Positions 200 to 60,658 of a stretch of DNA of 64,000 bases are shown in pieces; the stretch's first letter is position 1, and every line of letters begins with the position of its first letter. A model generated the notes under the pieces. The model saw only the letters and a list, made by a program, of their open reading frames with translations, was not told the origin of the DNA and made no database searches. Position numbers and translations under genes: made by a program. Location: assembly GCA_018063245.1 (NCBI GenBank), contig JAGPBS010000001.1, positions 8-64,007 on the forward strand. Reading direction: 5' to 3'. The stretch comes from Alphaproteobacteria bacterium. Its GTDB lineage: Bacteria > Pseudomonadota > Alphaproteobacteria > JAGPBS01.

Positions 200-229
200 A
201 ATTGATAAATATCAATTACTTCTTTGATT
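194..229. terminator. perfect 14-bp inverted repeat AGAAGTAATTGATA-AA-TATCAATTACTTCT followed by a T-rich tract; possible bidirectional terminator or operator
   Basis: The palindrome is read directly and overlaps the stop codon (216-218) of the minus-strand CDS. The run TTGATTTTGG follows it on the plus strand. Confidence 0.3.
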
Positions 230-1730
230 TTGGAAATGCGAAATGATTCAGTTTCATATTGCCTGCCTCATCCAGTGTAAAATCATATTCTCTTTCTGAT
301 GGCTTGCGCACGCCTTCTTGCGGAATACCAATTTCTCTCATGAGTTTCAATGTGATCAGCGTCGAGAAGAGGCCAAAATCAGGATTTTGAATTTGCGCTG
401 CTGTGAGTTGATGAATAAAGCTATCGATATCTTTTACGGTAAAGTTCGCTTGAGCTGTCATGTCCCGCTCGGCCAGGGGTTTGAAATTGAAATTGCCTTG
501 GCCAATTAGCTTAAAGACGTCATTTTCATAAAGAGCTCTATTGATTCTAAATTGGGTGCCTGCTTGCTTCATAGCTTTGATGAATGGAGGCAGGCTCCAA
601 TCGAGATTGATTTTATTGCCAGGCAAATGGGAGTCAACAAGAAATTGCCGAACAGCTGTCCAGAAAGCGGTTTGGGGAATTTTCTCTCCTGTTATATTGA
701 ACATCACAACTTCAGGGAGAATATTTTTGGGTAATGAGGGGTTGAGAAGATGCGGGTTATCAAGGCGGAATCCGACAAGTAAGCCAAACTGATTTTGATC
801 GAGGTTCTGGAGATCGATATGTTGTTCAAGATTTTCAAAAGTTAAATCGTATTTTTCAATCTGATGATTCACAGTCACGTTTTTTAACGAAAACTGGACG
901 TGTAATCCGTTGATAGAAGGCTCGAGCCTCTCTAGATTTTGATGCTGTACTTGCGCTTCGTCCTGGTTCCATTCAGCAAGGCCCATTGGCTTTAAGAGGC
1001 TCAAGTAAGTAATGAGCTCGAAGATATTTTGGTAGTGATCTTTCGACATGCCTTCTGATCTCGAGATAATTTTGAATTGATCCACTTTGATGGAGGGGAG
1101 CGTTTTACTCTCATGATGCCAGAGTTTTGTGATGTCGTAGACGAGAGAACTTTTAAGAGACTGAGGCCTGAGAGATTCAATTTTTTCTGAGATTGTGAGG
1201 CCCTCAATCTCTAAAAGAGGCTGTTTGAGTGCATCTGTTATATCAAAGGCTTTTGATCCTAGAGTCAAAGATGAGACAGCCTTTTGGCTGTAATCCCAGT
1301 CGCCTTCAAGGGTGCCTTGATGAATGTGAATCTCTCCAGTCGGAACATCACTCTCACCCAAAATTTTGATTGTACCAGGCAGCAGTGCTTTAAAGTGAAA
1401 TCCTTTTTGATCTGCATGCTTTTGGCAATTGATTGAAAATTGCCCAAGTCGAATCTTATGGGTGACTTTGCCGGAGGTAACTTGGTTGGCTGGGATCAGA
1501 TAGAGGTTTGCAATATCGAGCGTATATTGATCTTTCCCAATCTCTCTGACGTCAATTGTGCCTTCGGTTTGAGGAGCGTACTCAGACGGCAGAATGGGCG
1601 TGACTGCTTTTAAAAAGGAGGGGAGATCAACCACTTCCTTTTTGAAATCATCAAGGTCATAGGCCAGGCCTTTGACAGAAAAAAGAATGAGAATGCTGAG
1701 CGTGATAGCAAAAAAATGTTTTTTGATCAT
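216..1730 (-). CDS. secreted hypothetical protein (~504 aa) with N-terminal signal peptide
   Basis: Long ORF whose N-terminus MIKKHFFAITLSILILFSVKGLA looks like a signal peptide. Its start overlaps the ubiG stop by 4 nt (ATGA), so it is co-transcribed with ubiG. No recognisable catalytic motif. Confidence 0.6.
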   Translation of the reverse strand: MIKKHFFAITLSILILFSVKGLAYDLDDFKKEVVDLPSFLKAVTPILPSEYAPQTEGTIDVREIGKDQYTLDIANLYLIPANQVTSGKVTHKIRLGQFSINCQKHADQKGFHFKALLPGTIKILGESDVPTGEIHIHQGTLEGDWDYSQKAVSSLTLGSKAFDITDALKQPLLEIEGLTISEKIESLRPQSLKSSLVYDITKLWHHESKTLPSIKVDQFKIISRSEGMSKDHYQNIFELITYLSLLKPMGLAEWNQDEAQVQHQNLERLEPSINGLHVQFSLKNVTVNHQIEKYDLTFENLEQHIDLQNLDQNQFGLLVGFRLDNPHLLNPSLPKNILPEVVMFNITGEKIPQTAFWTAVRQFLVDSHLPGNKINLDWSLPPFIKAMKQAGTQFRINRALYENDVFKLIGQGNFNFKPLAERDMTAQANFTVKDIDSFIHQLTAAQIQNPDFGLFSTLITLKLMREIGIPQEGVRKPSEREYDFTLDEAGNMKLNHFAFPKSKK

Positions 1731-16397: not shown

Positions 16398-16585
16398 GGG
16401 ATTGCTCTTCTGGAAAGATGTTAGGCATATTATACAGATGAATCGTATATAAACCATTACCTCTCATAAATATAAACCTTCTGCATTGTCAATCTTTCTT
16501 TATTTATTTCTATTAAAATGAAAAAGAGAAAGTCTTTTTAATAAGTGCGGTGCTTGTTCATCGAAGATACGAGGAGGAGAGCCTT

Positions 16586-32757: not shown

Positions 32758-34068
32758 ATGTCTGTTAGCCAGTTTAGCCTGTTAAAAACAAGAAGGTTTT
32801 TACCTCTTTTTATTGTTCAGTTTTTGACGGCTTTCAATGACAATGCATTTAAGAACGCTTTTTTGATCTGGTTTACGTATGACCTTGTTCAATATTCTAC
32901 AATCAGTGCGCCTGTGATGGTGAATATCGCAGCGGCTCTTTTTATTGTACCATTCTTTTTATTTTCATCTATTGCGGGACAACTGGCGGATCGATTTGAT
33001 AAGGCTATTTTAACGCGCTATTTGAAATACGCAGAAATAATCTTGATGATTTTAGCAGCAGCCTGTTTTTATTTTAAGACGGTGACAGGGCTTTTAATTG
33101 TCTTATTCTTTTTGGGTGTGCAGGCCACTCTTTTTGGTCCAATCAAATATAGTCTTTTACCAGAGCAGCTTAAAGATAACGAGCTTATTGCAGGTAATGC
33201 CTTTATTGAAGGCGGTACTTTTTTAGCGATTCTGTTGGGGACAATCTTTGGCGGCCTTCTGGTGATGGGCAGTTTTGGGCGTGAGGCGATTGCCATTACG
33301 TTGATTTTGTTTGCTACAATTGGTTTGATCACAAGCTATTCAATGCCCCTTGCAAAAAAACGGCAAGTCGTAAAATCGACTCCATTTTCGTGGAATATTG
33401 TCACTGGAACAATGCAGATAATTGCTTATTCTCGTGAGACAAAAACGGTTTTTTATTCGATCATAGGCATTTCATGGTTTTGGCTTGTTGGCATTGTTTT
33501 TTTAAGTCAGTTTCCGATTTATGTGAAAGATGTGTTGCATGCGGATGAAGTGATTGTGACTCTGTTGCTGACCATTTTTTCTTTAGGGATTGGCATTGGT
33601 TCATTGCTTTGTAATCGTTTGCTCGATGGTAAAATTGATGGAAAGATGGTCCCCTATGGCGCGCTTGGGATGACTTTGTTCATCTTTTTGTTTACGCTCG
33701 GGAGTCACTTCTATAAGCATACTTACGTAGAGCAGCCAATCTTGATGCTTTTTGATTTTCTAAGATTTGGCTTTCCGGCCTATCTGATTTTATTGGGTCT
33801 GATTGGCCTTGCGATCTGTGGAGGGATTTATATTGTTCCTCTTTATGCAATCATGCAGCATCGCTCAAATCAGGCTCATATGGCGCGTGTTGTTGGTGCA
33901 AATAATGTTTTCAATGCTCTCTTTATGGTTATAGGAAGCGTTGGAACGGTGGGACTCTATGCACTCAATTTATCAGCTGTTGAAATTTTGTTTCTTGTCG
34001 GTCTGTTCAATGTTGGCGTCTTTTTTGTTGTTCAGCATATTGTAAGGCGGGAGAGAAAGCATGCTTAA
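32758..34068 (+). CDS. lplT: lysophospholipid transporter LplT (MFS)
   Basis: 12-TM MFS protein. Its 3' end overlaps the start of aas, the canonical lplT-aas pair. Confidence 0.8.
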   Translation: MSVSQFSLLKTRRFLPLFIVQFLTAFNDNAFKNAFLIWFTYDLVQYSTISAPVMVNIAAALFIVPFFLFSSIAGQLADRFDKAILTRYLKYAEIILMILAAACFYFKTVTGLLIVLFFLGVQATLFGPIKYSLLPEQLKDNELIAGNAFIEGGTFLAILLGTIFGGLLVMGSFGREAIAITLILFATIGLITSYSMPLAKKRQVVKSTPFSWNIVTGTMQIIAYSRETKTVFYSIIGISWFWLVGIVFLSQFPIYVKDVLHADEVIVTLLLTIFSLGIGIGSLLCNRLLDGKIDGKMVPYGALGMTLFIFLFTLGSHFYKHTYVEQPILMLFDFLRFGFPAYLILLGLIGLAICGGIYIVPLYAIMQHRSNQAHMARVVGANNVFNALFMVIGSVGTVGLYALNLSAVEILFLVGLFNVGVFFVVQHIVRRERKHA

Positions 34069-36196
34069 ATCTGTTTTGAAATTGTTCTTTACTGTTTTTT
34101 TTCGTATCAAAGTGATAGGCATTGAAAATTATGTCAAAGCAGGTAAGCGTGTCTTGGTTGTTGTGAATCACCTATCTTTTATCGACGCGATTGCCATTGC
34201 TTTGTATTTACCTGGCAAGCCCATGTTTGTTGTGAATAGCTTTATTGCGGATCATTGGCTCTTTAAACGCGCTCTTTCTTTTGTGAGATATTTTGCCCTT
34301 GATCCGACCAATCCTATGGCTACCAAAGATGTGATTCATGCGCTGCAGCAAGATGAAATCTGTGTGATTTTTCCAGAGGGTAGAATCACAGTGACGGGAT
34401 CACTCATGAAGATCTATGAAGGACCTGCGATGATTGCTGATAAATCCGGCGCTCAAATATTGCCGATTCGGATTGAAGGAGCGCAATATAGTCCTTTTTC
34501 ACGATTAAAGGGAAAGGTACGCATTCGTCTTTTCCCGAAGATTACGATTCATATTTTACCGCCCCGTGTTTTGAATGTGGAAAAGGATATGATGGGTCGA
34601 GAAAGACGCCATGCTTCAGGCGTGAAACTTTATGATGTGATGAGCGAGATGTATTTTGAGAGCTCTGATTACCAAAAGACACTTTTTCATTCGATCATTG
34701 ACATGATGTCTATTCATGGTCGAGACCATTATATTATGGAAGATATCTTGCGTCATCCTATCACTTACGGTCAATTTGTTGCGCGTAGTTTTATTCTGGG
34801 AAAGGCCTTTGTTCGATTTACTCAGAAAGATGAAATAGTTGGTCTATTGTTACCAAATATGATCAGTTCAGTGATTGCTTTTTTTGGACTTCATGCCTAT
34901 GGACGCGTTCCTTCCATGTTGAATTTCTCAGTAGGTGCCCACAATCTGACCCTGGCGGTTGAAGTCGCAAAAATCAAAACAGTGGTTACATCAAGGCGTT
35001 TTATTGCAACAGGTGAGTTAGAGCCGTTGGTTGAGGCTTTAGAGGCAAAAGGCATTATTATTCAGTATTTAGAAGATCTGCGCGATTCAATTTCTTTATT
35101 GGCGCGGATGACAGGCTTTGTGAAGTCATATGTGCCTCTTTTCTTTTACAAAAAGCAGAGACGTCTTGATTCAAAAGATGCAGCCGTTGTTCTTTTTACC
35201 TCAGGCTCGGAGGGCGTGCCTAAAGGGGTTGTTCTCTCGCACGAGAATATCCAAGCCAATCGCTTTCAGCTCGCATCGCGCGTTGATTTTGGTCCAACGG
35301 ATATTGTTTTTAATGCTTTGCCGATCTTCCATTCATTTGGCCTTACGGGCGGAACTCTTCTGCCGCTTCTTGCGGGCATTAAAACATTTTTTTATCCATC
35401 CCCTTTGCATTATCGAATTATTCCGGAATTGGTTTATGATCGCAATGCAACGATCATGTTTGGGACCGATACATTTTTGTCAGGCTATGCCAAATATGCG
35501 CACCCTTATGATTTTTATTCCATTCGCTATGTTTTTGCCGGCGCTGAAAAGCTGAAGGAGGAGACACGTAAAGTTTGGTCTGAAAAATATGGCGTGCGTA
35601 TTTTTGAAGGCTATGGCGCAACGGAAACGGCACCTGCTTTGTCAACAAATACACCAATGCATAATAAGCCAACAACAGTGGGCCGGCTTTTGCCATCAAT
35701 TGACTATCGGATTGAAAAAGTACCAGGCGTTGAGGCAGGAGGGCGTCTCTTTGTAAAAGGCCCAAATGTGATGAAGGGATATTTATTGCATGATGAGCCT
35801 GGTGTGATTGTGCCGCCGAAAGATGGATGGTATGACACAGGTGATATTGTTGATTTTGATGAAGAGGGATTTATATCCATTAAAGGCAGAGCAAAGCGTT
35901 TTTCAAAAATTGCTGGTGAGATGATTTCACTGACAGCTGTTGAAAAATTTATTGCAGACCTATGGCCCCAATATCAACATGCTGTGGTCGCGGTCCCTGA
36001 TGAGAAAAAGGGTGAGGCTTTGGTTCTTTTGACAAATTATGTTGGCGTGAATCGCGAAGAGATCAGTCTTTTTGCAAAACAAAATGGGATTACAGAGCTT
36101 TCTGTGCCAAGAGTTGTTAAATATCTTGAGAAGATGCCGATTCTGGCGACTGGTAAAGTTGATTATGTCGCCTTGCAGAAATTGGTGTCTCTCTAG
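34061..36196 (+). CDS. aas: bifunctional 2-acylglycerophosphoethanolamine acyltransferase / acyl-ACP synthetase Aas
   Basis: N-terminal PlsC HxxxxD motif VVNHLSFIDAIAI, then an AMP-binding domain (LFTSGSEGVPKGVVLSHENI; GYGATETAP). Confidence 0.85.
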   Translation: MLKSVLKLFFTVFFRIKVIGIENYVKAGKRVLVVVNHLSFIDAIAIALYLPGKPMFVVNSFIADHWLFKRALSFVRYFALDPTNPMATKDVIHALQQDEICVIFPEGRITVTGSLMKIYEGPAMIADKSGAQILPIRIEGAQYSPFSRLKGKVRIRLFPKITIHILPPRVLNVEKDMMGRERRHASGVKLYDVMSEMYFESSDYQKTLFHSIIDMMSIHGRDHYIMEDILRHPITYGQFVARSFILGKAFVRFTQKDEIVGLLLPNMISSVIAFFGLHAYGRVPSMLNFSVGAHNLTLAVEVAKIKTVVTSRRFIATGELEPLVEALEAKGIIIQYLEDLRDSISLLARMTGFVKSYVPLFFYKKQRRLDSKDAAVVLFTSGSEGVPKGVVLSHENIQANRFQLASRVDFGPTDIVFNALPIFHSFGLTGGTLLPLLAGIKTFFYPSPLHYRIIPELVYDRNATIMFGTDTFLSGYAKYAHPYDFYSIRYVFAGAEKLKEETRKVWSEKYGVRIFEGYGATETAPALSTNTPMHNKPTTVGRLLPSIDYRIEKVPGVEAGGRLFVKGPNVMKGYLLHDEPGVIVPPKDGWYDTGDIVDFDEEGFISIKGRAKRFSKIAGEMISLTAVEKFIADLWPQYQHAVVAVPDEKKGEALVLLTNYVGVNREEISLFAKQNGITELSVPRVVKYLEKMPILATGKVDYVALQKLVSL

Positions 36197-36447: not shown

Positions 36448-37761
36448 CTAAAACTGAAAGTCTCTTGTTGGATACAAGGCTCTCATTTCTTGCCAAAGCT
36501 GTTTTATGTCAACTCCAATTTGGTTAAACCCAAGATTAAGGCTTGTCAGCGTCCTGTTCACTTTGAGAGCCTCAGCAAAAGCTTTTGCGCCTTTATCTCC
36601 AATTTTGTTGCACCCAAGATCAAGACTTGTCAGCGTCGTGTTCATGGTAAGGGCATAAGCAAGGGCTTTTGCGCCTTTATCTCCAATTTGGTTAAACCCA
36701 AGATGAAGACTTGTAAGCGTCTCGTTCATATCAAGAGCCTTTGCAAGAGCTTTTGCACCTTTATCTCCAATTTCGTTAGCATTAAGATGAAAGCTTGTTA
36801 ATGTTTCGTTCTCTTTGAGGGCATCAGCAAATACTCTTGCATCTTCGTCTCTCATTTGAGCAGATACAATTTCAAAGCTTGTCAGTGTCTTGTTTATTTT
36901 AAGAGCGTCAGCAAACAATATTGCGCCTTCGTGCCCAATATTATTCATTACAAGTTCAAATCTTTTCAGGGTCTCGTTTTCTTTCAGAGCCTCAGCTAGG
37001 GTTCGTGCCCCTTCAGCTTTAACTTCGTTAAGTCCAAGATAAAGGCTTGTCAGCGTTCGGTTCTCTTTGAGGGCATCAGCAAGCACCTGTGCGCCTTCAT
37101 CTCCAACTGAATTGTCTTCAAGCTCAAGATTTGTGAGCGTTTTATTCACTTTAAGAAAACCTGCAAGTACTTCTGTGCCCGTAGTATTCATTTTATAAAA
37201 GATTTTGATCTGCGTGATAAAAGTCTGCTTTTGGAACATGACAGAAAGCTCTTCTTGATTTTGGATCTCGAAGAGATACCAGAGCCCGAACATTTCGTAG
37301 AGGGTGATATCTTTAGAATGAGCCACTGTTTTTGAAAGAAAATCTTCCAATTTCATGAATGGCATTCTATTTTCTGCCACTTTTTGAATGATTGGTTTCA
37401 TGTAAGAATTGAAGATGTCAGCATCAAAGACAGCCTCTGTCGAACAGAGCATTTTGATTTCTTGAAAAAGAGGGAGAAAAGCATCAAATGTCTGAGCTTC
37501 TCTCAGTTTTTGCTCTATTGTTGGTTGAAGGAGCCTCATCTTGATATCCAATGTCAATAGAGTGTTTTGAATGGTTCCCACTCTTTCAGCAAGTGGTAAC
37601 TTATTGAACTCACCCAATTGATATGTAAAAGCAATGTCAGATAATTTAGGGATTTGCTTTCCTACGACTGCTTGAATTGAGTGTGTCCTTTGCTCTTGGA
37701 GTCCAGCGGTTGAACTGAGTTCTTTTAGTGGATTTAAATGTGTCATGTCTGTATCTTTCAA
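36448..37761 (-). CDS. ribonuclease-inhibitor-type (RI-like) leucine-rich-repeat protein, eukaryote-like putative effector
   Basis: At least 10 tandem 28-aa repeats of the form LTSLxLGxNxIGDKGAKALAxALxxNxTLTSL. The plus-strand ORF 36490..36801 is the antisense of these repeats. The start is ambiguous (TTG at 37761 or ATG at 37746). Confidence 0.75.
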   Translation of the reverse strand: MKDTDMTHLNPLKELSSTAGLQEQRTHSIQAVVGKQIPKLSDIAFTYQLGEFNKLPLAERVGTIQNTLLTLDIKMRLLQPTIEQKLREAQTFDAFLPLFQEIKMLCSTEAVFDADIFNSYMKPIIQKVAENRMPFMKLEDFLSKTVAHSKDITLYEMFGLWYLFEIQNQEELSVMFQKQTFITQIKIFYKMNTTGTEVLAGFLKVNKTLTNLELEDNSVGDEGAQVLADALKENRTLTSLYLGLNEVKAEGARTLAEALKENETLKRFELVMNNIGHEGAILFADALKINKTLTSFEIVSAQMRDEDARVFADALKENETLTSFHLNANEIGDKGAKALAKALDMNETLTSLHLGFNQIGDKGAKALAYALTMNTTLTSLDLGCNKIGDKGAKAFAEALKVNRTLTSLNLGFNQIGVDIKQLWQEMRALYPTRDFQF

Positions 37762-37888
37762 GTTATAAGAGGTCTATAAAATATATTTTGCAAAGAATGC
37801 ACCAACTCAATTGTATTTGCAATCAATATTGAAACAATTTTGCAGAATAGATTCATAAACCTGCTGTGAATAGAATTCGCCAGATCAG

Positions 37889-38590
37889 TTACTTCTTCAC
37901 AGCAGGTTTAAATCTCTTATCCAGAAATTGTGAGGCCTTGACGATGCCTTCATATGAAATGCCGTGGTCTAATTGAGGGCAGCTGAGTGTTTCAGTTGGA
38001 ATGCCAAGGCCAGTTAAGCTATCCTTGGCTTTTGAGAGTTCACTGAAAGGCACAACGGAATCATCTTGCCCATGAATCAGGAGCGTTGGTGTTTTAGAGA
38101 TGATTTCTGAGCCGAATTCAGGCCTATGGAGGAATGAACCGGAAAATCCAACGATGCCGCCAAGCGGCTCTTTGCGACGAAGTGCTGTGTGCAAGGCCAT
38201 CATGGTGCCCTGAGAAAAGCCAACAAGAATAAGATCGTTGCTTTTGAGATCGTAGGTTTCAAGCATTTCATCAATGTACTTATCGAGGACAGGCGCTGCA
38301 ATCTGAGCCCCTTGAAACATATTCTCAAAGTCTCTTTTTTGGAGTGAAAACCACTGGCGGCCAAAAGGAGCGAGTTCAAAAGGAAAAGGCGCATCTGGTG
38401 AAGCAAAAAGACAATCTTTCCAGAACGCATGCTCTTTGAAAGATTCTGAAAGGGAAATGAGATCCTGACCATCAGCGCCGTAACCGTGCAGGAAAATGAC
38501 CATATGCCGGATATCACTTGATTGAGGTTCAAGGATAGGGCCATCTAATGTTGGCAGTGCTTTTACATTTTGCATTTGGATAGGAGACAT
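37889..38590 (-). CDS. phospholipase/carboxylesterase-family alpha/beta hydrolase
   Basis: GFSQGTMMAL nucleophile elbow (GxSxG) and LLIHGQDDSVVPF. SD AGAGGTG precedes the start. It lies 17 bp downstream of the GDSL lipase gene. Confidence 0.8.
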   Translation of the reverse strand: MSPIQMQNVKALPTLDGPILEPQSSDIRHMVIFLHGYGADGQDLISLSESFKEHAFWKDCLFASPDAPFPFELAPFGRQWFSLQKRDFENMFQGAQIAAPVLDKYIDEMLETYDLKSNDLILVGFSQGTMMALHTALRRKEPLGGIVGFSGSFLHRPEFGSEIISKTPTLLIHGQDDSVVPFSELSKAKDSLTGLGIPTETLSCPQLDHGISYEGIVKASQFLDKRFKPAVKK

Positions 38591-38607
38591 AAAACACCTC
38601 TGATTGT

Positions 38608-40521
38608 CTAGAATTCAAGTGCGTAATGGACTTGAATTTGCTTCTCACGAGAATGCGCTTTATTGTCAGAAAAATCAAGATTGAAAAACAAACCTCCTAT
38701 TTTTTCAAAGGCGAGATCAGCTTCATAATGCATGTTCACAAATTGATTCTGAGATTGATTTTTAAAGGAGGCACGGCTGCGATCAAACTGATAGGCATGT
38801 TGACTTTCTGCAGTGCTGTGCGTGAGGCCTAATTTTAGATGATGGCTCAAAAAACCAAGGTGTGTTTTTTGAGATGGTAAGAAAAACTGTCCGCCAAGAC
38901 TGTATGCTTCTTTCTTGTAGCTTTGATTTTTTTCAGTAAGAGATGAACAGGATCCACTATTCAAGCGATCATGATGATGAGATGAAAACTCAACAAGAGG
39001 GCCATAAAGAAAATGTCCATTTGTCATCAGTGATCCCATTTCAATAAAGATATTTTGACTCTGTCCCCGATGCGAGCTTGAATCCTTGCCGTAAGATTGC
39101 CTGCCGAGGCTGAGTCCCCAATCAAGATAATGTGTGGTTTTGGCCTTTGATAGATAATCGATAGATCCCGAGATGCCGACTTCTTGATGGGACAGAGAGG
39201 TTGAAGATGAGAGATTTGAATCCGCAATATGCGTAAAGGCACCGATGGAAAATGTATTATTCAATTGATAGTTCAGATGAACCCGGTGCGCATCAAGCGA
39301 TTTGGATCCTTTGTGTTTTTCACGCTCTTGAAAGGAGAGGGGTTTTTCAAGGGCTGTTGATTGCGCGCTGATCAAGAGAGTATTTTGCGTTGAATCATTC
39401 TGATTTAACTGTGCATAAATTGATTTTTGAGTCACCGAAGGAGATTGCCTGCGCAGTCCTTTTCCATCAAGACTTCGAGAGAGCCGCTTTTGCTGAATGG
39501 GTGATAGAACAAGGCTTTTTGTTTGCGCTTCAAGTTGATCCATCAGAGGAAGAAACGTATCGTTTTTACTCAATTTTTTAGCTTCTTCAAAAGCTTTTTG
39601 AGAAAGATAATAATGAACGGCCGCTGATGGATGGACATCATCTGCATAAAACCAAGCGCCATCAATTTTGCCATCTTGACGATTGAGAGCATCCGTTGTG
39701 TTTGAAAAGCCATAGTGCTCAGGATCAGCGAGCATCGCCTCAATGCTTGAAAAAATATCCACAATTTCAATGCCTTGTTCGGGGCCTAAATTTTCTCTGA
39801 GTGTTGCAACGGAAGCCGAGAGCGCCTGATTATGGCTGACAGAAAATTGTCTCATGATTCGCTTGAGATTATCGACTTCTTTTTGTGTTAAGTTTGGGAA
39901 GAGTTCTGAGATTCTTTTGATAATGGGTGTTTTTGAAAAATCAGGTAAGTTGGCAATTAAGAGAGAATCTGCGCCCGCATTTAAAAGTGTTTCCATACCT
40001 TGTGATATGTTTTGAACAGATTCTGTTACGTGAGAGCGAAATTTAGAGGCGAAGTCTTGAATCGCCTCAGGACTTTTTGATGTTGCCATGAGTTGATAAA
40101 ATCGAGGATTTTGGAAGAGGCTTAGATAATCATTTGCGCCTGCATATAAAAGGATGAGATCTGTTGATTTAGGATCATGCTCATTGGTAAAGAGTCCAAT
40201 TTGTTGAGTCAGCATTGGTACTGGAGATTTTAAAAGGGCACCAAAACTTGCATGAGGTCCTGTGAGAGCGCCACCAAAAGCATAATTGAGAACTTGTTCA
40301 TTTGACATATTGAGGGAGCTTTTCAAATGATCAATATAGATAGGTCCATTGGTAAAGCGCCCGCTCCATCTTTTGTCTTGATCAACGGGCTTCACATTTC
40401 CTGTATCGGAGAGGGAGTCTCCAAAGACGATCATTCTGTCAAAACCAGCCATTGCATTGTGTGATGTCATGGCGATGATAAGGGCGAAAAAAAACACCAG
40501 ATAGAATCTTACATAGACCAT
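38608..40521 (-). CDS. autotransporter SGNH/GDSL lipase-esterase (EstA/ApeE-like)
   Basis: Signal peptide, GDSL block I FGDSLSDTGN, block V DDVHPSAAVH, and a C-terminal beta-barrel ending ...HYALEF. Strong SD AAGGAGAG precedes the ATG at 40521 (the ORF track extends to 40554). Confidence 0.85.
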   Translation of the reverse strand: MVYVRFYLVFFFALIIAMTSHNAMAGFDRMIVFGDSLSDTGNVKPVDQDKRWSGRFTNGPIYIDHLKSSLNMSNEQVLNYAFGGALTGPHASFGALLKSPVPMLTQQIGLFTNEHDPKSTDLILLYAGANDYLSLFQNPRFYQLMATSKSPEAIQDFASKFRSHVTESVQNISQGMETLLNAGADSLLIANLPDFSKTPIIKRISELFPNLTQKEVDNLKRIMRQFSVSHNQALSASVATLRENLGPEQGIEIVDIFSSIEAMLADPEHYGFSNTTDALNRQDGKIDGAWFYADDVHPSAAVHYYLSQKAFEEAKKLSKNDTFLPLMDQLEAQTKSLVLSPIQQKRLSRSLDGKGLRRQSPSVTQKSIYAQLNQNDSTQNTLLISAQSTALEKPLSFQEREKHKGSKSLDAHRVHLNYQLNNTFSIGAFTHIADSNLSSSTSLSHQEVGISGSIDYLSKAKTTHYLDWGLSLGRQSYGKDSSSHRGQSQNIFIEMGSLMTNGHFLYGPLVEFSSHHHDRLNSGSCSSLTEKNQSYKKEAYSLGGQFFLPSQKTHLGFLSHHLKLGLTHSTAESQHAYQFDRSRASFKNQSQNQFVNMHYEADLAFEKIGGLFFNLDFSDNKAHSREKQIQVHYALEF

Positions 40522-40562
40522 CTTTCTCTCCTTAATCGTAGAATCAGGAATCAACTCTAAGG

Positions 40563-41288
40563 CTATTGTCCTTTTGCAGGATTTGCTGTTGTGTTTTCAG
40601 CAGAAGCAGGTTTTGTGTCAGCTGGTGTTGTCTTTGCTGCCGCTGGAGAACTTGTTGCAACGCCTTTGATTTCGCCTGTCTTTACGGTTTTATCTTTAAT
40701 CACAACTTTACCATTGCCGCTTTCAAAAGTGATTGAACCTGTGATATCTGTTTTGCCTTTTAGCTCAACAATTTGCTGTTTTGTGGCATCAGTACTTTTT
40801 TTGATCAGAATCGATTCTGCTTTACAATTGCTCAGTTCCATTTTTTCAACTTCAGCAATGATTGCTTTGAAGGTTGAATCTTCAGCGTCAAATTCACCTG
40901 AAGCTGTCACGGTGTCACCAAAAGTTGATTTTTTAATCTTTGTGTTGCCGTTTATGGTCGTTTGTTTTGTAATTGAGACTGATTCAAGTTCAGTGTCGCC
41001 ATTGCTTGTAAAAGAGCCAGTAAAACTTGACTTTTCAACTTCTGTTTTACCGTTAAAGGTTCCATCTTGTAATTCTGAGTCTTTAATATCTGCATCACCC
41101 ATAGATGTGAGTGATTGTGCCAGTTTGCTTTTGTCAATTTTCAAGCGACCCATAGAAGTGACAGCCTCTTGAAATGTTTGATTTTTAAGCTCAGCATCGC
41201 CCATAAATTGAGCAGGGCCTGCATAGCTTGCTAAAGGGCTAAAGGCAATGAGTGAAACACTGAGAAGAAGAGATTTAGAAAAAGACAT
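40563..41288 (-). CDS. secreted repeat protein (GD-x-[ED]-[LI]-K...TF repeats; possible beta-helical fold)
   Basis: Signal peptide MSFSKSLLLSVSLIAFSPLASYA with SD AAGGAG. Repeated MGDAELKNQTF / MGDADIKDSELQDGTF / NGDTELESVSI / SGEFDAEDSTF. It lies 8 bp upstream of the lipase gene. Confidence 0.55.
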   Translation of the reverse strand: MSFSKSLLLSVSLIAFSPLASYAGPAQFMGDAELKNQTFQEAVTSMGRLKIDKSKLAQSLTSMGDADIKDSELQDGTFNGKTEVEKSSFTGSFTSNGDTELESVSITKQTTINGNTKIKKSTFGDTVTASGEFDAEDSTFKAIIAEVEKMELSNCKAESILIKKSTDATKQQIVELKGKTDITGSITFESGNGKVVIKDKTVKTGEIKGVATSSPAAAKTTPADTKPASAENTTANPAKGQ

Positions 41289-41362
41289 AGAAGAACTCCT
41301 TTATTGATTTTATTTGTTATTTGGTATTCTCTTTTTACGAAATGTTCACCCTGAATGCAATT

Positions 41363-45425: not shown

Positions 45426-46778
45426 ATGACACAAAATAATGATATTCAAAAACGTTTAGATTTTTTGGGCATTAATGACGGTGTGCGGAGTACATTAAGA
45501 GAATTTAAGCCAATTGCAGCCAGGGCATTGGGTCCGATTTTAGATGGTTTTTATGCTCATATTAGTGGATGGTCTGATTTAGCAAAAATGTTTGGTAGTC
45601 AAGACCGTATAAATTATGCAAAACAAAAGCAGATTGACCATTGGATGAATATTCTGAATGGGACTTTTGATGACTCATACGTTGAATCTGTTACAAAAAT
45701 CGGGATGACCCATAATCGTTTGGGACTTGAACCAAGATGGTATATTGGGGGCTATAATTTTATCGGCATAGGTCTGATTGCTGAGGCTGTGAAATATTAT
45801 CAAAAGGGGTGGAGCCATAAAAAAGCGCAAGAAAACATTATTCGGACCGCTGATGCGATTAATAAAGCGCTTATGCTTGATATGGATTTTGCAATTTCAG
45901 TTTACCTAGAAGCGCAGGCAGATGATCGAAAAAATTTATTGAATCAACTTGGGTCAGAATTTGAAGGATCGGTCAAAAAAGTTGTTGATAATGTCATTAG
46001 TTCTGCAACATCCGTTCAGAATCATTCAGAGGTGATGGTGAGAAACACTGATCTTGTAAATCAACAATCATCAACAGCGGCAGCTGCATCAACACAAGCT
46101 TCTTCAAATGTTCAAACCGTCTCAGCGGCAGCAGAAGAACTGTCAGCATCAATTCAGGAAATCTCACGTCAAGTGCAGCAATCGAACCAAATGACAAAGA
46201 ATGCAAGTGATGTTGCGCGTCAGACAAATGAGACAGTGTCTGGTCTTGTTGAAGCTGCTCAGAAAATTGGTGAAGTTGTTGGGATTATTAATGACATTGC
46301 AGATCAAACAAATCTCCTTGCACTGAATGCAACGATTGAAGCTGCACGTGCAGGTGAGGCAGGTAAAGGATTCGCAGTTGTTGCGAATGAAGTGAAGTCA
46401 CTTGCCAATCAAACGGCAAAATCAACAGATGAAATTAATGAGCAGATTTTAAACATCCAAAAAGTGTCTGAGGAAGCCGCTGTTCAAATTCGGAATATTG
46501 CAGATACGATTGCTCAGATTAGCGAAATTTCAGGCAGTATTGCAGCTTCAGTTGAAGAGCAAAGTTCTGCAACAGGTGAGATTGCTCGCAATGTTCAGCA
46601 AGCATCACAGGGTACATCTGAGGTTTCACAAAGTGTTGAAAGCATGAATCGTGCGACACATGAAACAGAACAAGGGGCACGTGAGTTGGTTAATTCCTCA
46701 AAAGAACTCCTCTCACAAGCTGATGAGTTAAATCAGGATGTTGATGCTTTCTTGAATAAAATTCGGACAGCTGCTTAG
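45426..46778 (+). CDS. globin-coupled sensor methyl-accepting chemotaxis protein (HemAT-like)
   Basis: The N-terminal ~175 aa match the protoglobin/GCS pattern ([13 protein letters not shown]..., FYAHI..., [41 protein letters not shown]), with a proximal His candidate in MTHNRLG. The C-terminal MCP signalling domain has the highly conserved [32 protein letters not shown]. Confidence 0.8.
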
Positions 46779-54575: not shown

Positions 54576-55763
54576 TTAGAGCGATTTAGATGCCCGAGGA
54601 GCGATTCGTTTGGGAAGCATCTTTTGCGCTGCTTCTTCGTAGCCATTTTTTGCTGCTTCTTGAAACCAAAAGTAGGCTTTTGTGAGGTTTTGATGAGGTC
54701 CTGTCATTTCATAAATCTCAGCAAGCTCAAATTGAGCCTCTACGTATAGTTCTGTCGCTTTTGTTAAATAAGCGATTGCTGTTTCAAGTTCTTTTTCTTC
54801 TTTATAAACAAGGCCTAGCTCTAATTGAGACTCACCGTGCCCATTGTCAGAGGCTCTTTCTAAGTAGAACATTCCTTTATCATAATCTTCAGGTGTGTTG
54901 ATTCCATGGAGATACATACATCCCAATTTGTGTGTGGATGGATTAAAATTATGATCAGCAGCAATTTGATAGTAGGCTATTGCTTTTTGAATGTTAATCT
55001 CTGTACCAAAGCCAAGTTCAAACATGACACCAAGTTGATGATTTGCTTTGATGTGGCCTTTCTGTGCTGCATTTAGAAAACACTCAAATGCAGTTTCTCT
55101 AGGATTTTCAAATTCAGGAAACTCTATATGGACCATTCCAAGATAAAATTGAGCCTCTGCACTCCCTTGGGATGCAGCCTTAACCAAGTAGTCTTTTGCT
55201 ATGCCTAAATCCCTGCCGACAAGCTCTCCTTTACGGTAATGAATACCTAAATAAAGCTGTGCAGTCATGTCATTTTCTTTTGCAGCCTCGGTCCATAGCT
55301 CAATGATTCTATTTCTTATATCTGCGTTTAAGTTAATGCTTGGTTCAGTATTATAGATAAAGCCAAGGATGACCTTTGCAGGGGTAAAATTGAGCTCTGC
55401 AGAAATCTCAAGATAATGAATTGCTTTTGTAAGCTGTTTTGCATCATCATTAATTTCATAATGCTTAATCCCCAAATTGTATAGAGCTTCGGGATGCTCT
55501 AGATTAGCTGCTTTTTGAAGATACACATTTGCTTTTGCATCGTCTGTTGTATTGACATAAAGGTCAAAATAATAATCACCGTCTTTTTCATGCTTAAGGC
55601 GTTTAGCTGCAGAGTCTCGGCTCATGATGGTTTTAATATCAACCTTTACTGAAGGTTGAGTGGATTCGATATTTCTTTTTGTGGCCTTCTCAATACTGAT
55701 ATTTTCATCAGTTTGAGTTAGATTTTGGGTGTTTGAGTTGGTATTAAATTGAATGCCTGACAT
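54576..55763 (-). CDS. Sel1-repeat (TPR-like) protein, ~9 repeats
   Basis: Recurring A-x-x-Y-L-G-x-x-Y Sel1 motifs, e.g. AQFYLGMVHIEF, AQLYLGIHYRKGELVGRDLGIAKDYLVKAASQG, AQFELAEIYEMT. Confidence 0.8.
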   Translation of the reverse strand: MSGIQFNTNSNTQNLTQTDENISIEKATKRNIESTQPSVKVDIKTIMSRDSAAKRLKHEKDGDYYFDLYVNTTDDAKANVYLQKAANLEHPEALYNLGIKHYEINDDAKQLTKAIHYLEISAELNFTPAKVILGFIYNTEPSINLNADIRNRIIELWTEAAKENDMTAQLYLGIHYRKGELVGRDLGIAKDYLVKAASQGSAEAQFYLGMVHIEFPEFENPRETAFECFLNAAQKGHIKANHQLGVMFELGFGTEINIQKAIAYYQIAADHNFNPSTHKLGCMYLHGINTPEDYDKGMFYLERASDNGHGESQLELGLVYKEEKELETAIAYLTKATELYVEAQFELAEIYEMTGPHQNLTKAYFWFQEAAKNGYEEAAQKMLPKRIAPRASKSL

Positions 55764-58783: not shown

Positions 58784-60658
58784 TTAACCTTGAGCCTGAT
58801 CTTTATAAAAGGCGATGAGTGTTTTTCTGATATCCGCTAGAGCGCCTTTATCGAGATGAGTCTCGCCCTTGTGCGGGGCATGAGCACCAATTGTATAGTT
58901 ACCTAAAGTCACACGATCGATACCACCACTTTTAGACATTTGACGACTTGTCGCTTCTTTTGTTGTTTTGAGATACTGAACAAAAGTTTGTAAGTTTTCT
59001 TTTGTCACTTTTCCTTTTGTCATAATCTCATTGTAGATTTTTTTGATCTGGTTTGGGGCTTTTTGTATATAGAATCTTTCAATTCTTGTTTCTTCCTCTT
59101 TGAGTTGTTTTGTAAGATCTTGAATGACGCGTTGTGTATCTTGTATCCGCGTTTTGATTTTAACAGTTGGTTCTTTTTTTACTTTTGGGATCGCTTGCGC
59201 AGCAGGTGTTTGTTTGGGTGGCTCAGGATTTTCTGCAACCGTTGGCACTTCTACAGTTTCAGCTTCAGCTTCAGGTTCTTGGGATTGTGGTTTTTTCTTT
59301 TGTGGCTTTGAAGGCATAGCGAGTTGATATGACTCAGCGATTTCTTCTTTGGTTGGTTGTCTGATTTTGTAGCGTCGTGAAATTTCTGAGAGAGATTTGC
59401 TGAGTTTGATCATTAAATCATGCAGCATCATAATATATTTGGGGTAATAATAGATGATTTCATTCTCAGAAAGCGTAAAGACGAGATCAAGCATGTCGAG
59501 CGTTGCGAGAGCTTTTTCAGGTGATAGTTCTTGCATTGCAAGTGTTTCAAAGACAGGGCGAAACATCTGTAAAGCAAATTTAAAACGATTGACTGTCTCA
59601 GGTTTGCGGATGTCTACTGGTCTTTTGAGATAAGGGGTGATGAGTTTTTCATAAATAATTTCAATTGTCATGAGTTTAACAGGAAGCATCTGTCGGCGAC
59701 TTGGATGATTTAGATATTGGACATATTCAAGCGCTTTTTCAATGTTCGAATAGGGCATTCCTGGTTGCGCTAAATAGGCTGCGAGCTGTGCGTAGCCTGC
59801 CATGACAAAGCCAATCGGTGTTTTGAAAGGAGTTTCTTGAAGCAAGTTTTCTTGTCTGACTTCTTTGAGCCAATTATTAAGAATCGTCATTGCTTTGTTA
59901 GCGTTTTTTTCGGTGCCTTGTCCAAAGAAATGGCAGATAGACAGAAAGAGTTTAACTTCTTTAAAGCCGCCATCTTCCTCGATTTCTGTGAAGTAATTAA
60001 AGGCTTTTTTGAAATCTGCTTCATTGCCTTCCAGCTCGGCACTTTCATAGTAGATGATGCCCAAATCTAAAAGTCCAATGGTACGAACTGGTTTCTGAGG
60101 GTTTTCATGAGCAAGGTTTAACATAAAGATGGCTTTATCTAGATCCGCTTCTGAACGCCCTGATTTGGTATAATAATATTGGCCAACAGCAAGTTGAGCG
60201 CGCCAGAATTTTTTTGTAGCACTGATTTCTAAAAAGGAAAGACCTTCTTGAATCGATCCTTGGTCCATCAGCTGTGTTCCATATTCGTAACAAGCGGTCA
60301 CATCTTGATGCTCAGTTGCCATTCTTTTAATAAGCTCTGCTTCAAATGCATCTGGGTCCTCTGTCACAAAGGGGGCAAGAGTTCGCATTGTTGCAAGATT
60401 CGGAGAATTGAGATGCGCAATGCGCGATAGGTAAAACTCTTTTCTCTTTACGTTTTTGAGACAAAAAGTATAGGCAATGTCTCTTTCAAGAAGCGGAATA
60501 TTTTCGACCGTGAAGGTTTGAGGATTTTGAAAACGGGTGAGAATGTCTGTGAGTAATATTTTGATGGCCGGGGTGTCATAGGTTTGAATCCATGCGTGTG
60601 CATCATAGATAAGTGTTGTGATCTCTGGTGTTAAATGTTTTTCAAATGCGCTCATCAA
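58784..60658 (-). CDS. large hypothetical protein with Sel1-like repeats, a Pro/Glu-rich linker and a C-terminal coiled coil; putative effector
   Basis: AQLAVGQYYYTKSGRSEADLDKAIFMLNLA is Sel1-like. A PQKKKPQSQEPEAEAETVEVPTVAENPEPPKQTP segment follows. Directly upstream of clpB. Confidence 0.55.
   Translation of the reverse strand: MMSAFEKHLTPEITTLIYDAHAWIQTYDTPAIKILLTDILTRFQNPQTFTVENIPLLERDIAYTFCLKNVKRKEFYLSRIAHLNSPNLATMRTLAPFVTEDPDAFEAELIKRMATEHQDVTACYEYGTQLMDQGSIQEGLSFLEISATKKFWRAQLAVGQYYYTKSGRSEADLDKAIFMLNLAHENPQKPVRTIGLLDLGIIYYESAELEGNEADFKKAFNYFTEIEEDGGFKEVKLFLSICHFFGQGTEKNANKAMTILNNWLKEVRQENLLQETPFKTPIGFVMAGYAQLAAYLAQPGMPYSNIEKALEYVQYLNHPSRRQMLPVKLMTIEIIYEKLITPYLKRPVDIRKPETVNRFKFALQMFRPVFETLAMQELSPEKALATLDMLDLVFTLSENEIIYYYPKYIMMLHDLMIKLSKSLSEISRRYKIRQPTKEEIAESYQLAMPSKPQKKKPQSQEPEAEAETVEVPTVAENPEPPKQTPAAQAIPKVKKEPTVKIKTRIQDTQRVIQDLTKQLKEEETRIERFYIQKAPNQIKKIYNEIMTKGKVTKENLQTFVQYLKTTKEATSRQMSKSGGIDRVTLGNYTIGAHAPHKGETHLDKGALADIRKTLIAFYKDQAQG

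Follow-up and report, generated by a model that had tools for sequence, protein, structure and literature searches.

We analysed a 64,000-nt stretch of contig JAGPBS010000001.1 (hereafter, the window) from an uncultured alphaproteobacterium with a GC content of about 40%, and focused on a minus-strand block of three genes that encode a repeat protein (gene 1), a GDSL lipase (gene 2) and an esterase (gene 3). An earlier note on this sequence had described the block as a secreted lipolytic operon built around an autotransporter lipase. Our analyses point to a lipase with a complete SGNH/GDSL catalytic domain and a C-terminal domain that probably forms an outer-membrane beta-barrel. The three open reading frames (ORFs) of the earlier note are all in place (Table 1), and so is the strong Shine-Dalgarno sequence that it had assigned to the lipase. 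We place the start of the lipase at the ATG at 40521, because AAGGAG precedes this codon at a distance of 6 nt and because the homologues (five of five) start at the equivalent Met. An in-frame TTG at 40554, which would extend the protein to 648 aa, was rejected as the start, since the Shine-Dalgarno sequence and the homologue starts both speak for the ATG. The reported gap of 8 bp from the repeat gene to the lipase gene is right only if counted to this TTG; counted to the ATG, which the earlier note also gave, it measures 41 nt. The distance of 17 nt from the stop codon of the lipase to the ATG of the esterase had been given correctly, and the lipase and esterase genes each possess their own Shine-Dalgarno sequence.

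Table 1. Features of the lipase block and its flanks, numbered from the first nucleotide of the window
Feature	Position	Strand	Remarks
terC	42097-41363	minus	upstream of gene 1, same strand
19-nt motif AAATTGCATTCAGGGTGAA	41345-41363	minus	adjoins the terC stop on its downstream side; occurs once in the window
Gene 1, repeat protein	41288-40563	minus	ORF, 241 aa
Shine-Dalgarno sequence AAGGAG	40533-40528	minus	6-nt spacer to the lipase ATG; read directly from the sequence
Gene 2, lipase	40521-38608	minus	ORF, 637 aa from ATG
Lipase signal peptide, aa 1-25	40521-40447	minus	MVYVRFYLVFFFALIIAMTSHNAMA, followed by G; n-h-c layout and AxA site (AMA-G), by eye
SGNH/GDSL hydrolase passenger, aa 26-328	40446-39538	minus	Pfam Lipase_GDSL
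Linker, aa 329-410	39537-39292	minus	polar, predicted to be partly helical; conserved LEKPL(S/T)FQE(R/Q)EK before the first clear strand (alignments A1/A2)
Orphan C-terminal domain, aa 411-637	39291-38611	minus	putative barrel, ~12 amphipathic strands, His-rich, ends IQVHYALEF
Gene 3, esterase	38590-37889	minus	ORF, 233 aa
Long imperfect RNA hairpin	37770-37862	minus	esterase-LRR spacer; minimum free energy -28.5 kcal/mol, z -2.3, 3 of 200 shuffles as stable
LRR_6 (leucine-rich repeat, LRR) protein	37761-36448	minus	downstream of the esterase; 437 aa

The catalytic domain of the lipase

The passenger of the lipase matches Lipase_GDSL (PF00657) with E 7.7e-24 and 85.4 bits (Pfam, cut-off 23.6), and follows a Sec signal peptide that, judged by eye, is conserved in the family alignment A1. 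GDSL blocks I and V, to which the earlier note had drawn attention, are both present together with blocks II and III, block V being D294-x-x-H297. The catalytic set is complete, comprising S36 (in GDSLSD), G83/G84, N130 (in GANDY), and D294 and H297 (in DDVHP), and all these residues are invariant in the family alignment and across nine diverse GDSL proteins; the catalytic Ser, Asp and His that the earlier note attributed to the passenger are thus found as S36, D294 and H297. A search of PDB sequences returned Legionella PlaA as the closest solved relative (PDB 8a24, E 1e-15), along with Vibrio thermolabile haemolysins, and Foldseek ranked PlaA first even from a poor full-length model of the lipase. 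PlaA acts as a lysophospholipase A and is secreted by the type II route (bioRxiv 10.1101/2023.03.24.534060; PMC5701174). The NCBIfam model of PlaA (NF045906) gave 104.3 bits, below its cut-off of 450, and that of EstP/EstA (NF041609) gave 37.3 bits where 1000 are required, matching only aa 24-94. Since both scores fall below the cut-offs, the lipase is, by these sequence models, an equivalog of neither PlaA nor EstP; it is a relative of PlaA. In the databases, it is labelled 'SGNH/GDSL hydrolase family protein' (MBP9693290.1, NCBI) and 'thermolabile hemolysin' (JGI). A (lyso)phospholipase/esterase activity on a phospholipid substrate is a reasonable inference.

The C-terminal domain of the lipase

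With a Phe at position -1 and hydrophobic residues at -3, -5, -7 and -9, the last nine residues of the lipase (IQVHYALEF) carry the full C-terminal beta-signal pattern, which occurs in 1 of the 263 ORFs that the window contains in six frames at a minimum length of 60 aa and is also seen at the ends of the true autotransporter lipases among the matches. Such a terminal Phe preceded by alternating hydrophobic residues is an assembly signal of outer-membrane proteins, by which BAM recognises them. The period-2 amphipathicity of aa 400-637 was 0.445 (z 1.5 versus shuffled sequences), compared to 0.41-0.53 (z 1.3-4.2) for true PF03797 barrels, z -0.2 for the passenger of the lipase and z of about -2 for C-termini of other GDSL proteins that are beta-sandwiches. 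Over aa 413-637, twelve candidate strands joined by short loops can be drawn, with hydrophobic residues or Gly at 71% of the outward and 38% of the inward positions. The AlphaFold model of the C-terminal region, which was built from an alignment of six sequences and reached a pLDDT of 43.6 and a pTM of 0.41, contains strands of 11-20 residues arranged as a meander over aa 423-619. Moreover, the EstA-type PF03797 proteins among the matches measure 575-677 aa, and the lipase, with 637 aa, has the same domain order; a signal peptide, a passenger, a linker and a putative barrel would make up the layout of an autotransporter. The putative barrel (aa 411-637) contains 7.9% His, with 11 invariant His residues, and 15% Ser; the His content was 0-5.8% in seven genuine PF03797 barrels and 2.6% in the passenger of the lipase. 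Possibly, a His-rich lining makes the domain sensitive to pH or metal. We consider it probable that the C-terminal domain is an outer-membrane beta-barrel, with its number of strands uncertain and its descent from PF03797 unproven.

Judged by sequence comparison, the lipase from about aa 329 to 637 is an orphan region. An exhaustive hmmsearch with the C-terminal domain against 1.84 billion cluster representatives retrieved its own cluster only, and in a search of 5.8 billion proteins five clusters (68-98% identity) aligned over the full length of the lipase, the other 94 matches ending at the GDSL domain. Scanning the GTDB genomes with the lipase alignment revealed no relative, and metagenome scans with alignments A2 and then A1 added no sequences. 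At permissive thresholds, the Pfam and NCBIfam models hit by the C-terminal 310 aa were noise (DUF3919, Arabino_trans_C, lipoyltransferase), and hhalign in global mode against PF03797 barrels produced a meaningless alignment of six columns. Foldseek with the C-terminal model found nothing below E 0.06. The full-length AlphaFold model of the lipase, also from six sequences, had a pLDDT of 39 with the GDSL domain itself poorly modelled, and Foldseek returned for it only GDSL enzymes and non-significant matches to outer-membrane proteins.

A number of observations speak against the barrel, or against an autotransporter type of it. PF03797 was not matched at E<=0.01 by the full lipase nor at E<=10 by the C-terminal 310 aa (Pfam), and none of the NCBIfam autotransporter and barrel models, including TIGR01414, matched the lipase even at permissive thresholds. 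Local hhalign of the C-terminal profile against the PF03797 barrels of eight GDSL proteins yielded a probability of 0.1%, and a profile search of PDB sequences with the C-terminal domain gave 0 matches at E<=10. The amphipathicity z of the lipase falls at the low end of the range of true barrels, the 12-strand model was drawn by hand, and the family alignment consists of six near-identical sequences, which provide no covariation support. In addition, the AlphaFold models display no clear long helix ahead of the first strand that could span the pore, as the alpha-helical linker does in the 12-stranded barrels of classical type Va autotransporters; both contain, at very low confidence, short helices at aa 341-351, 365-372 and 397-402. 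The autotransporter barrel put forward in the earlier note was thus not detected by domain scanning or by any of the other sequence methods. From its description of a C-terminal barrel ending in F, the terminal F within a beta-signal holds, and the barrel is drawn from pattern evidence and a low-confidence fold.

Partner genes, neighbourhood and host

Gene 1 encodes a signal-peptide repeat protein, as the earlier note had read it: a signal peptide (aa 1-23, ending ASYA before GP) is followed by about seven turns of ~17 residues with invariant G30, G47, G64, G80, G97, G114 and G131 (alignment A3), and by a tail rich in Pro, Thr, Ala and Lys. In the relative at 77% identity (L085, 9117-9938), the gene 1 orthologue measures 273 aa instead of 241, its tail being expanded by TPAETKT-like repeats; therefore, the tail behaves as a variable low-complexity spacer. 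Pfam, including Bactofilin (PF04519), gave no match to gene 1, and PDB sequence searches with the single sequence and with a profile returned nothing meaningful. Its homologue P0104 (31% identical, E 5e-12) matches Pfam Bactofilin with 34.9 bits versus a cut-off of 27.9. The gene 1 product, identical to MBP9693289.1 (KBE16_01080), which NCBI annotates as 'hypothetical protein', is best described, from its sequence, as an exported bactofilin-like beta-helix. The bactofilins described to date are cytoplasmic. No hydrolase signature was found in gene 1, and its inclusion in a lipolytic set is not upheld. Distant gene 1 homologues adjoin kdsB and lptC-lptA-lptB, not lipases; hence, the pairing of gene 1 with the lipase is lineage-specific.

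The gene 3 product belongs to Abhydrolase_2 (PF02230; E 1.7e-37, 129.8 bits versus a cut-off of 23 in Pfam), in agreement with its previous assignment to the phospholipase/carboxylesterase family. Its triad of S126 (in the GFSQG elbow), D177 and H209 aligns with that of PDB 4fhz from Rhodobacter, which, together with 5dwd from Pelagibacterium, is its best PDB match (E 4e-42 and 1e-39, respectively). The N-terminus has neither a hydrophobic stretch nor a signal peptide, and the protein, which resembles cytosolic family-VI carboxylesterases, is probably cytosolic; the label 'secreted' does not suit it.

All relatives found (L001-L004, L085, L086 and L087) retain both the short gaps and the succession of terC, repeat protein, GDSL protein and esterase. 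The gene for the LRR protein, which adjoins the esterase gene here (437 aa) and in L001 (460 aa), is absent in L085 and L086, relatives at 77% and 68% identity; we therefore rejected it as a member of the block and regard as incidental the adjacency to an LRR effector gene that the earlier note had made part of the module. Downstream of the block lie aas in L085 and ftsJ-recO in L086. Relatives with a 98%-identical lipase (L001, 8484-9143; L002 and L003) possess, between terC and the 241-aa gene, an extra 219-aa gene 1 paralogue (~30% identity) with a signal peptide. This paralogue is absent from the window (41289-41362), and the indel is edged by a direct repeat of ~28 nt containing AAATTGCANTNNGGGTGAA. 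The motif AAATTGCATTCAGGGTGAA is found exactly in L001-L004 and L087 and is duplicated ahead of each gene 1 paralogue in L001-L003; we regard it as a candidate for the promoter or operator of the block. A scan for the terminator consensus found no minus-strand terminator inside the three-gene block, and a promoter consensus scan performed no better than on shuffled sequence. Lacking a T-run, the hairpin in the spacer between the esterase and LRR genes does not qualify as a canonical terminator; possibly, it marks the 3' end of the block. The arrangement fits a three-gene transcription unit, i.e., the genes may be co-transcribed. Of the secreted lipolytic operon of the earlier note, the tight spacing and conserved order stand, and the description as secreted and lipolytic does not hold throughout: gene 1 is exported but shows no sign of being a hydrolase, and gene 3 has no export signal.

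The cytochrome b encoded in the window is at most 75% identical to that of any GTDB species representative, the best matches being uncultured alphaproteobacterial and Micavibrio metagenome-assembled genomes. Scans of the window for tRNA genes and Rfam families were empty. Two LRR and two Sel1 proteins with eukaryote-like repeats are encoded at 36448-37761 (minus), 20237-21385 (plus), 54576-55763 (minus) and 58784-60658 (minus), and the remaining genes of the window are of a housekeeping nature (TolB, RuvB, ClpB, SHMT, bc1, RNR). We infer from this mixture of LRR/Sel1 and housekeeping genes what it suggests, namely, a host-associated lifestyle. Beside the RNR genes, at 45426-46778 (plus), lies a protoglobin-MCP chemoreceptor gene of the globin-coupled sensor type, which is kept in all relatives and suggests that the bacterium is motile and aerotactic. 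Convergent to the lipase block, an LplT-like MFS gene overlaps aas by 8 nt (32758-36196, plus). Together, the LplT-like protein and Aas (acyltransferase plus acyl-ACP synthetase) match the fused acyl-ACP-phospholipid O-acyltransferase PRK06814, and they constitute a lysophospholipid uptake and re-acylation pair. In L085, a 1511-aa protein without a Pfam match is encoded just past the lplT-like gene (16398-20933). Four long ORFs of the window also lack a Pfam match at E<=1e-5: 216-1730 (minus, 504 aa), 16550-18271 (plus, 573 aa), 18310-19644 (plus, 444 aa) and 24942-25913 (plus, 323 aa).

Proposed working and comparison with known systems

We propose that the 637-aa lipase would be exported by Sec, and that its C-terminal ~225-270 residues would be inserted by BAM in the outer membrane, forming a small barrel of ~12 strands. 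This barrel would anchor the GDSL domain, most likely at the cell surface, as in EstA-type proteins (PMC9289746), and may by analogy with EstA also translocate it; the GDSL domain would then deacylate (lyso)phospholipids at the outer membrane. All characterised proteins that share this domain order, namely the EstA group, display their passenger on the surface, and in type Va translocators the barrel is conserved in sequence and belongs to PF03797 (PMC9289746). The barrel of the lipase could be a type Va translocator that has diverged extremely, or else a barrel unrelated to these. On balance, we lean towards the view that the lipase is a Sec-exported and barrel-anchored SGNH/GDSL (lyso)phospholipase/esterase acting at the outer membrane.

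The evidence can also be read in other ways. The C-terminal domain might be a soluble, beta-rich accessory domain, e.g., for binding of substrate or membrane, in an enzyme that leaves the cell through type II secretion or within vesicles, like PlaA and TLH, the Vibrio thermolabile haemolysin. The passenger is indeed nearer to the type II-secreted PlaA and TLH than to EstA (bioRxiv 10.1101/2023.03.24.534060), non-barrel C-terminal domains are common among the GDSL matches, the domain matches no barrel family, and its structure models are of low confidence; given the beta-signal and the amphipathic strands, we nevertheless judge such a soluble domain unlikely. A different possibility, to which we assign an even smaller chance, is that the barrel is real but no translocator, so that a periplasmic GDSL domain would be held at the inner face of the outer membrane and would trim envelope phospholipids or lysophospholipids, the products feeding the LplT-like transporter and Aas. 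In an even-stranded barrel both termini are periplasmic, a convincing pore-spanning helix is missing, and the C-terminal domain has no homology to known translocators; moreover, the LplT-like MFS gene and aas are found at a distance of 1.7 kb, and aas abuts the esterase gene in L085. However, the adjacency to lplT-aas is lost in L086, and the EstA group carries its passengers on the surface throughout (PMC9289746).

It is also conceivable that the three genes are neighbours co-inherited within a narrow clade and form no functional lipolytic module. With all relatives at 68% identity or more, recent common descent may be enough to explain the synteny; the distant homologues of gene 1 reside in unrelated contexts (kdsB, lptCAB), and the esterase is of a common alphaproteobacterial housekeeping type. 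Against this, the gaps are as short as 41 and 17 nt, a separate Shine-Dalgarno sequence precedes each downstream gene, no terminator separates the genes, and the block stays intact while its flanks rearrange (LRR gene or paralogue gained or lost, ftsJ-recO in place of aas). Weighing both sides, we regard mere co-inheritance as doubtful, although its chance is appreciable. Finally, as a speculation to which we give little credence, the C-terminal domain may represent an unrecognised barrel family that does not derive from PF03797 and was independently recruited to display or anchor a GDSL phospholipase, i.e., an autotransporter-like subtype of one host-associated alphaproteobacterial clade, in which the gene 1 product might serve as a stalk, scaffold or chaperone partner and the His-rich lining might sense pH or metal.

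If the tail of the lipase is a real barrel, then autotransporter-like surface lipases can evade every current sequence model, and surveys of type V secretion among uncultured, host-associated bacteria would count too few of them. The lipase would also offer a very small, His-rich and relative-less barrel on which substrate recognition by BAM could be studied. In a bacterium carrying LRR and Sel1 proteins, a surface phospholipase would be a plausible host-membrane factor. Should the tail be merely a fast-evolving PF03797 barrel, the lipase would be an ordinary EstA-type member.

Among known systems, the type Va lipases EstA (P. aeruginosa, 3kvn), EstP, ApeE and McaP have a PF03797 translocator, and the tail of our lipase is unrecognisable as such; its putative barrel is unusually rich in His and Ser. 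Its passenger is nearer to PlaA and TLH than to EstA, which phmmer did not find at E<=1. PlaA (8a24-8a26) and the Vibrio thermolabile haemolysin/PlpA are like the lipase in their catalytic blocks and are its best sequence and fold matches; unlike the lipase, they are soluble, type II-secreted and devoid of a barrel-like C-terminal domain. The gene 3 product aligns over its full length with family VI carboxylesterases and APT-like proteins (R. sphaeroides 4fhz, P. halotolerans 5dwd, P. fluorescens 1auo, human APT1/LYPLA1), with which it has GFSQG, Asp and His in common, and presents nothing unusual. With the bactofilins (PF04519), described in published work as cytoskeletal, polymer-forming proteins, the gene 1 product shares turns of ~17 residues with an invariant Gly, but it differs from them in its lack of a PF04519 match, its cleavable-looking Sec signal peptide and its PT-rich tail. 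GDSL autotransporters as such are already known; what is unusual here is a relative-less, translocator-like domain, confined to one narrow clade and paired with an exported bactofilin-like protein.

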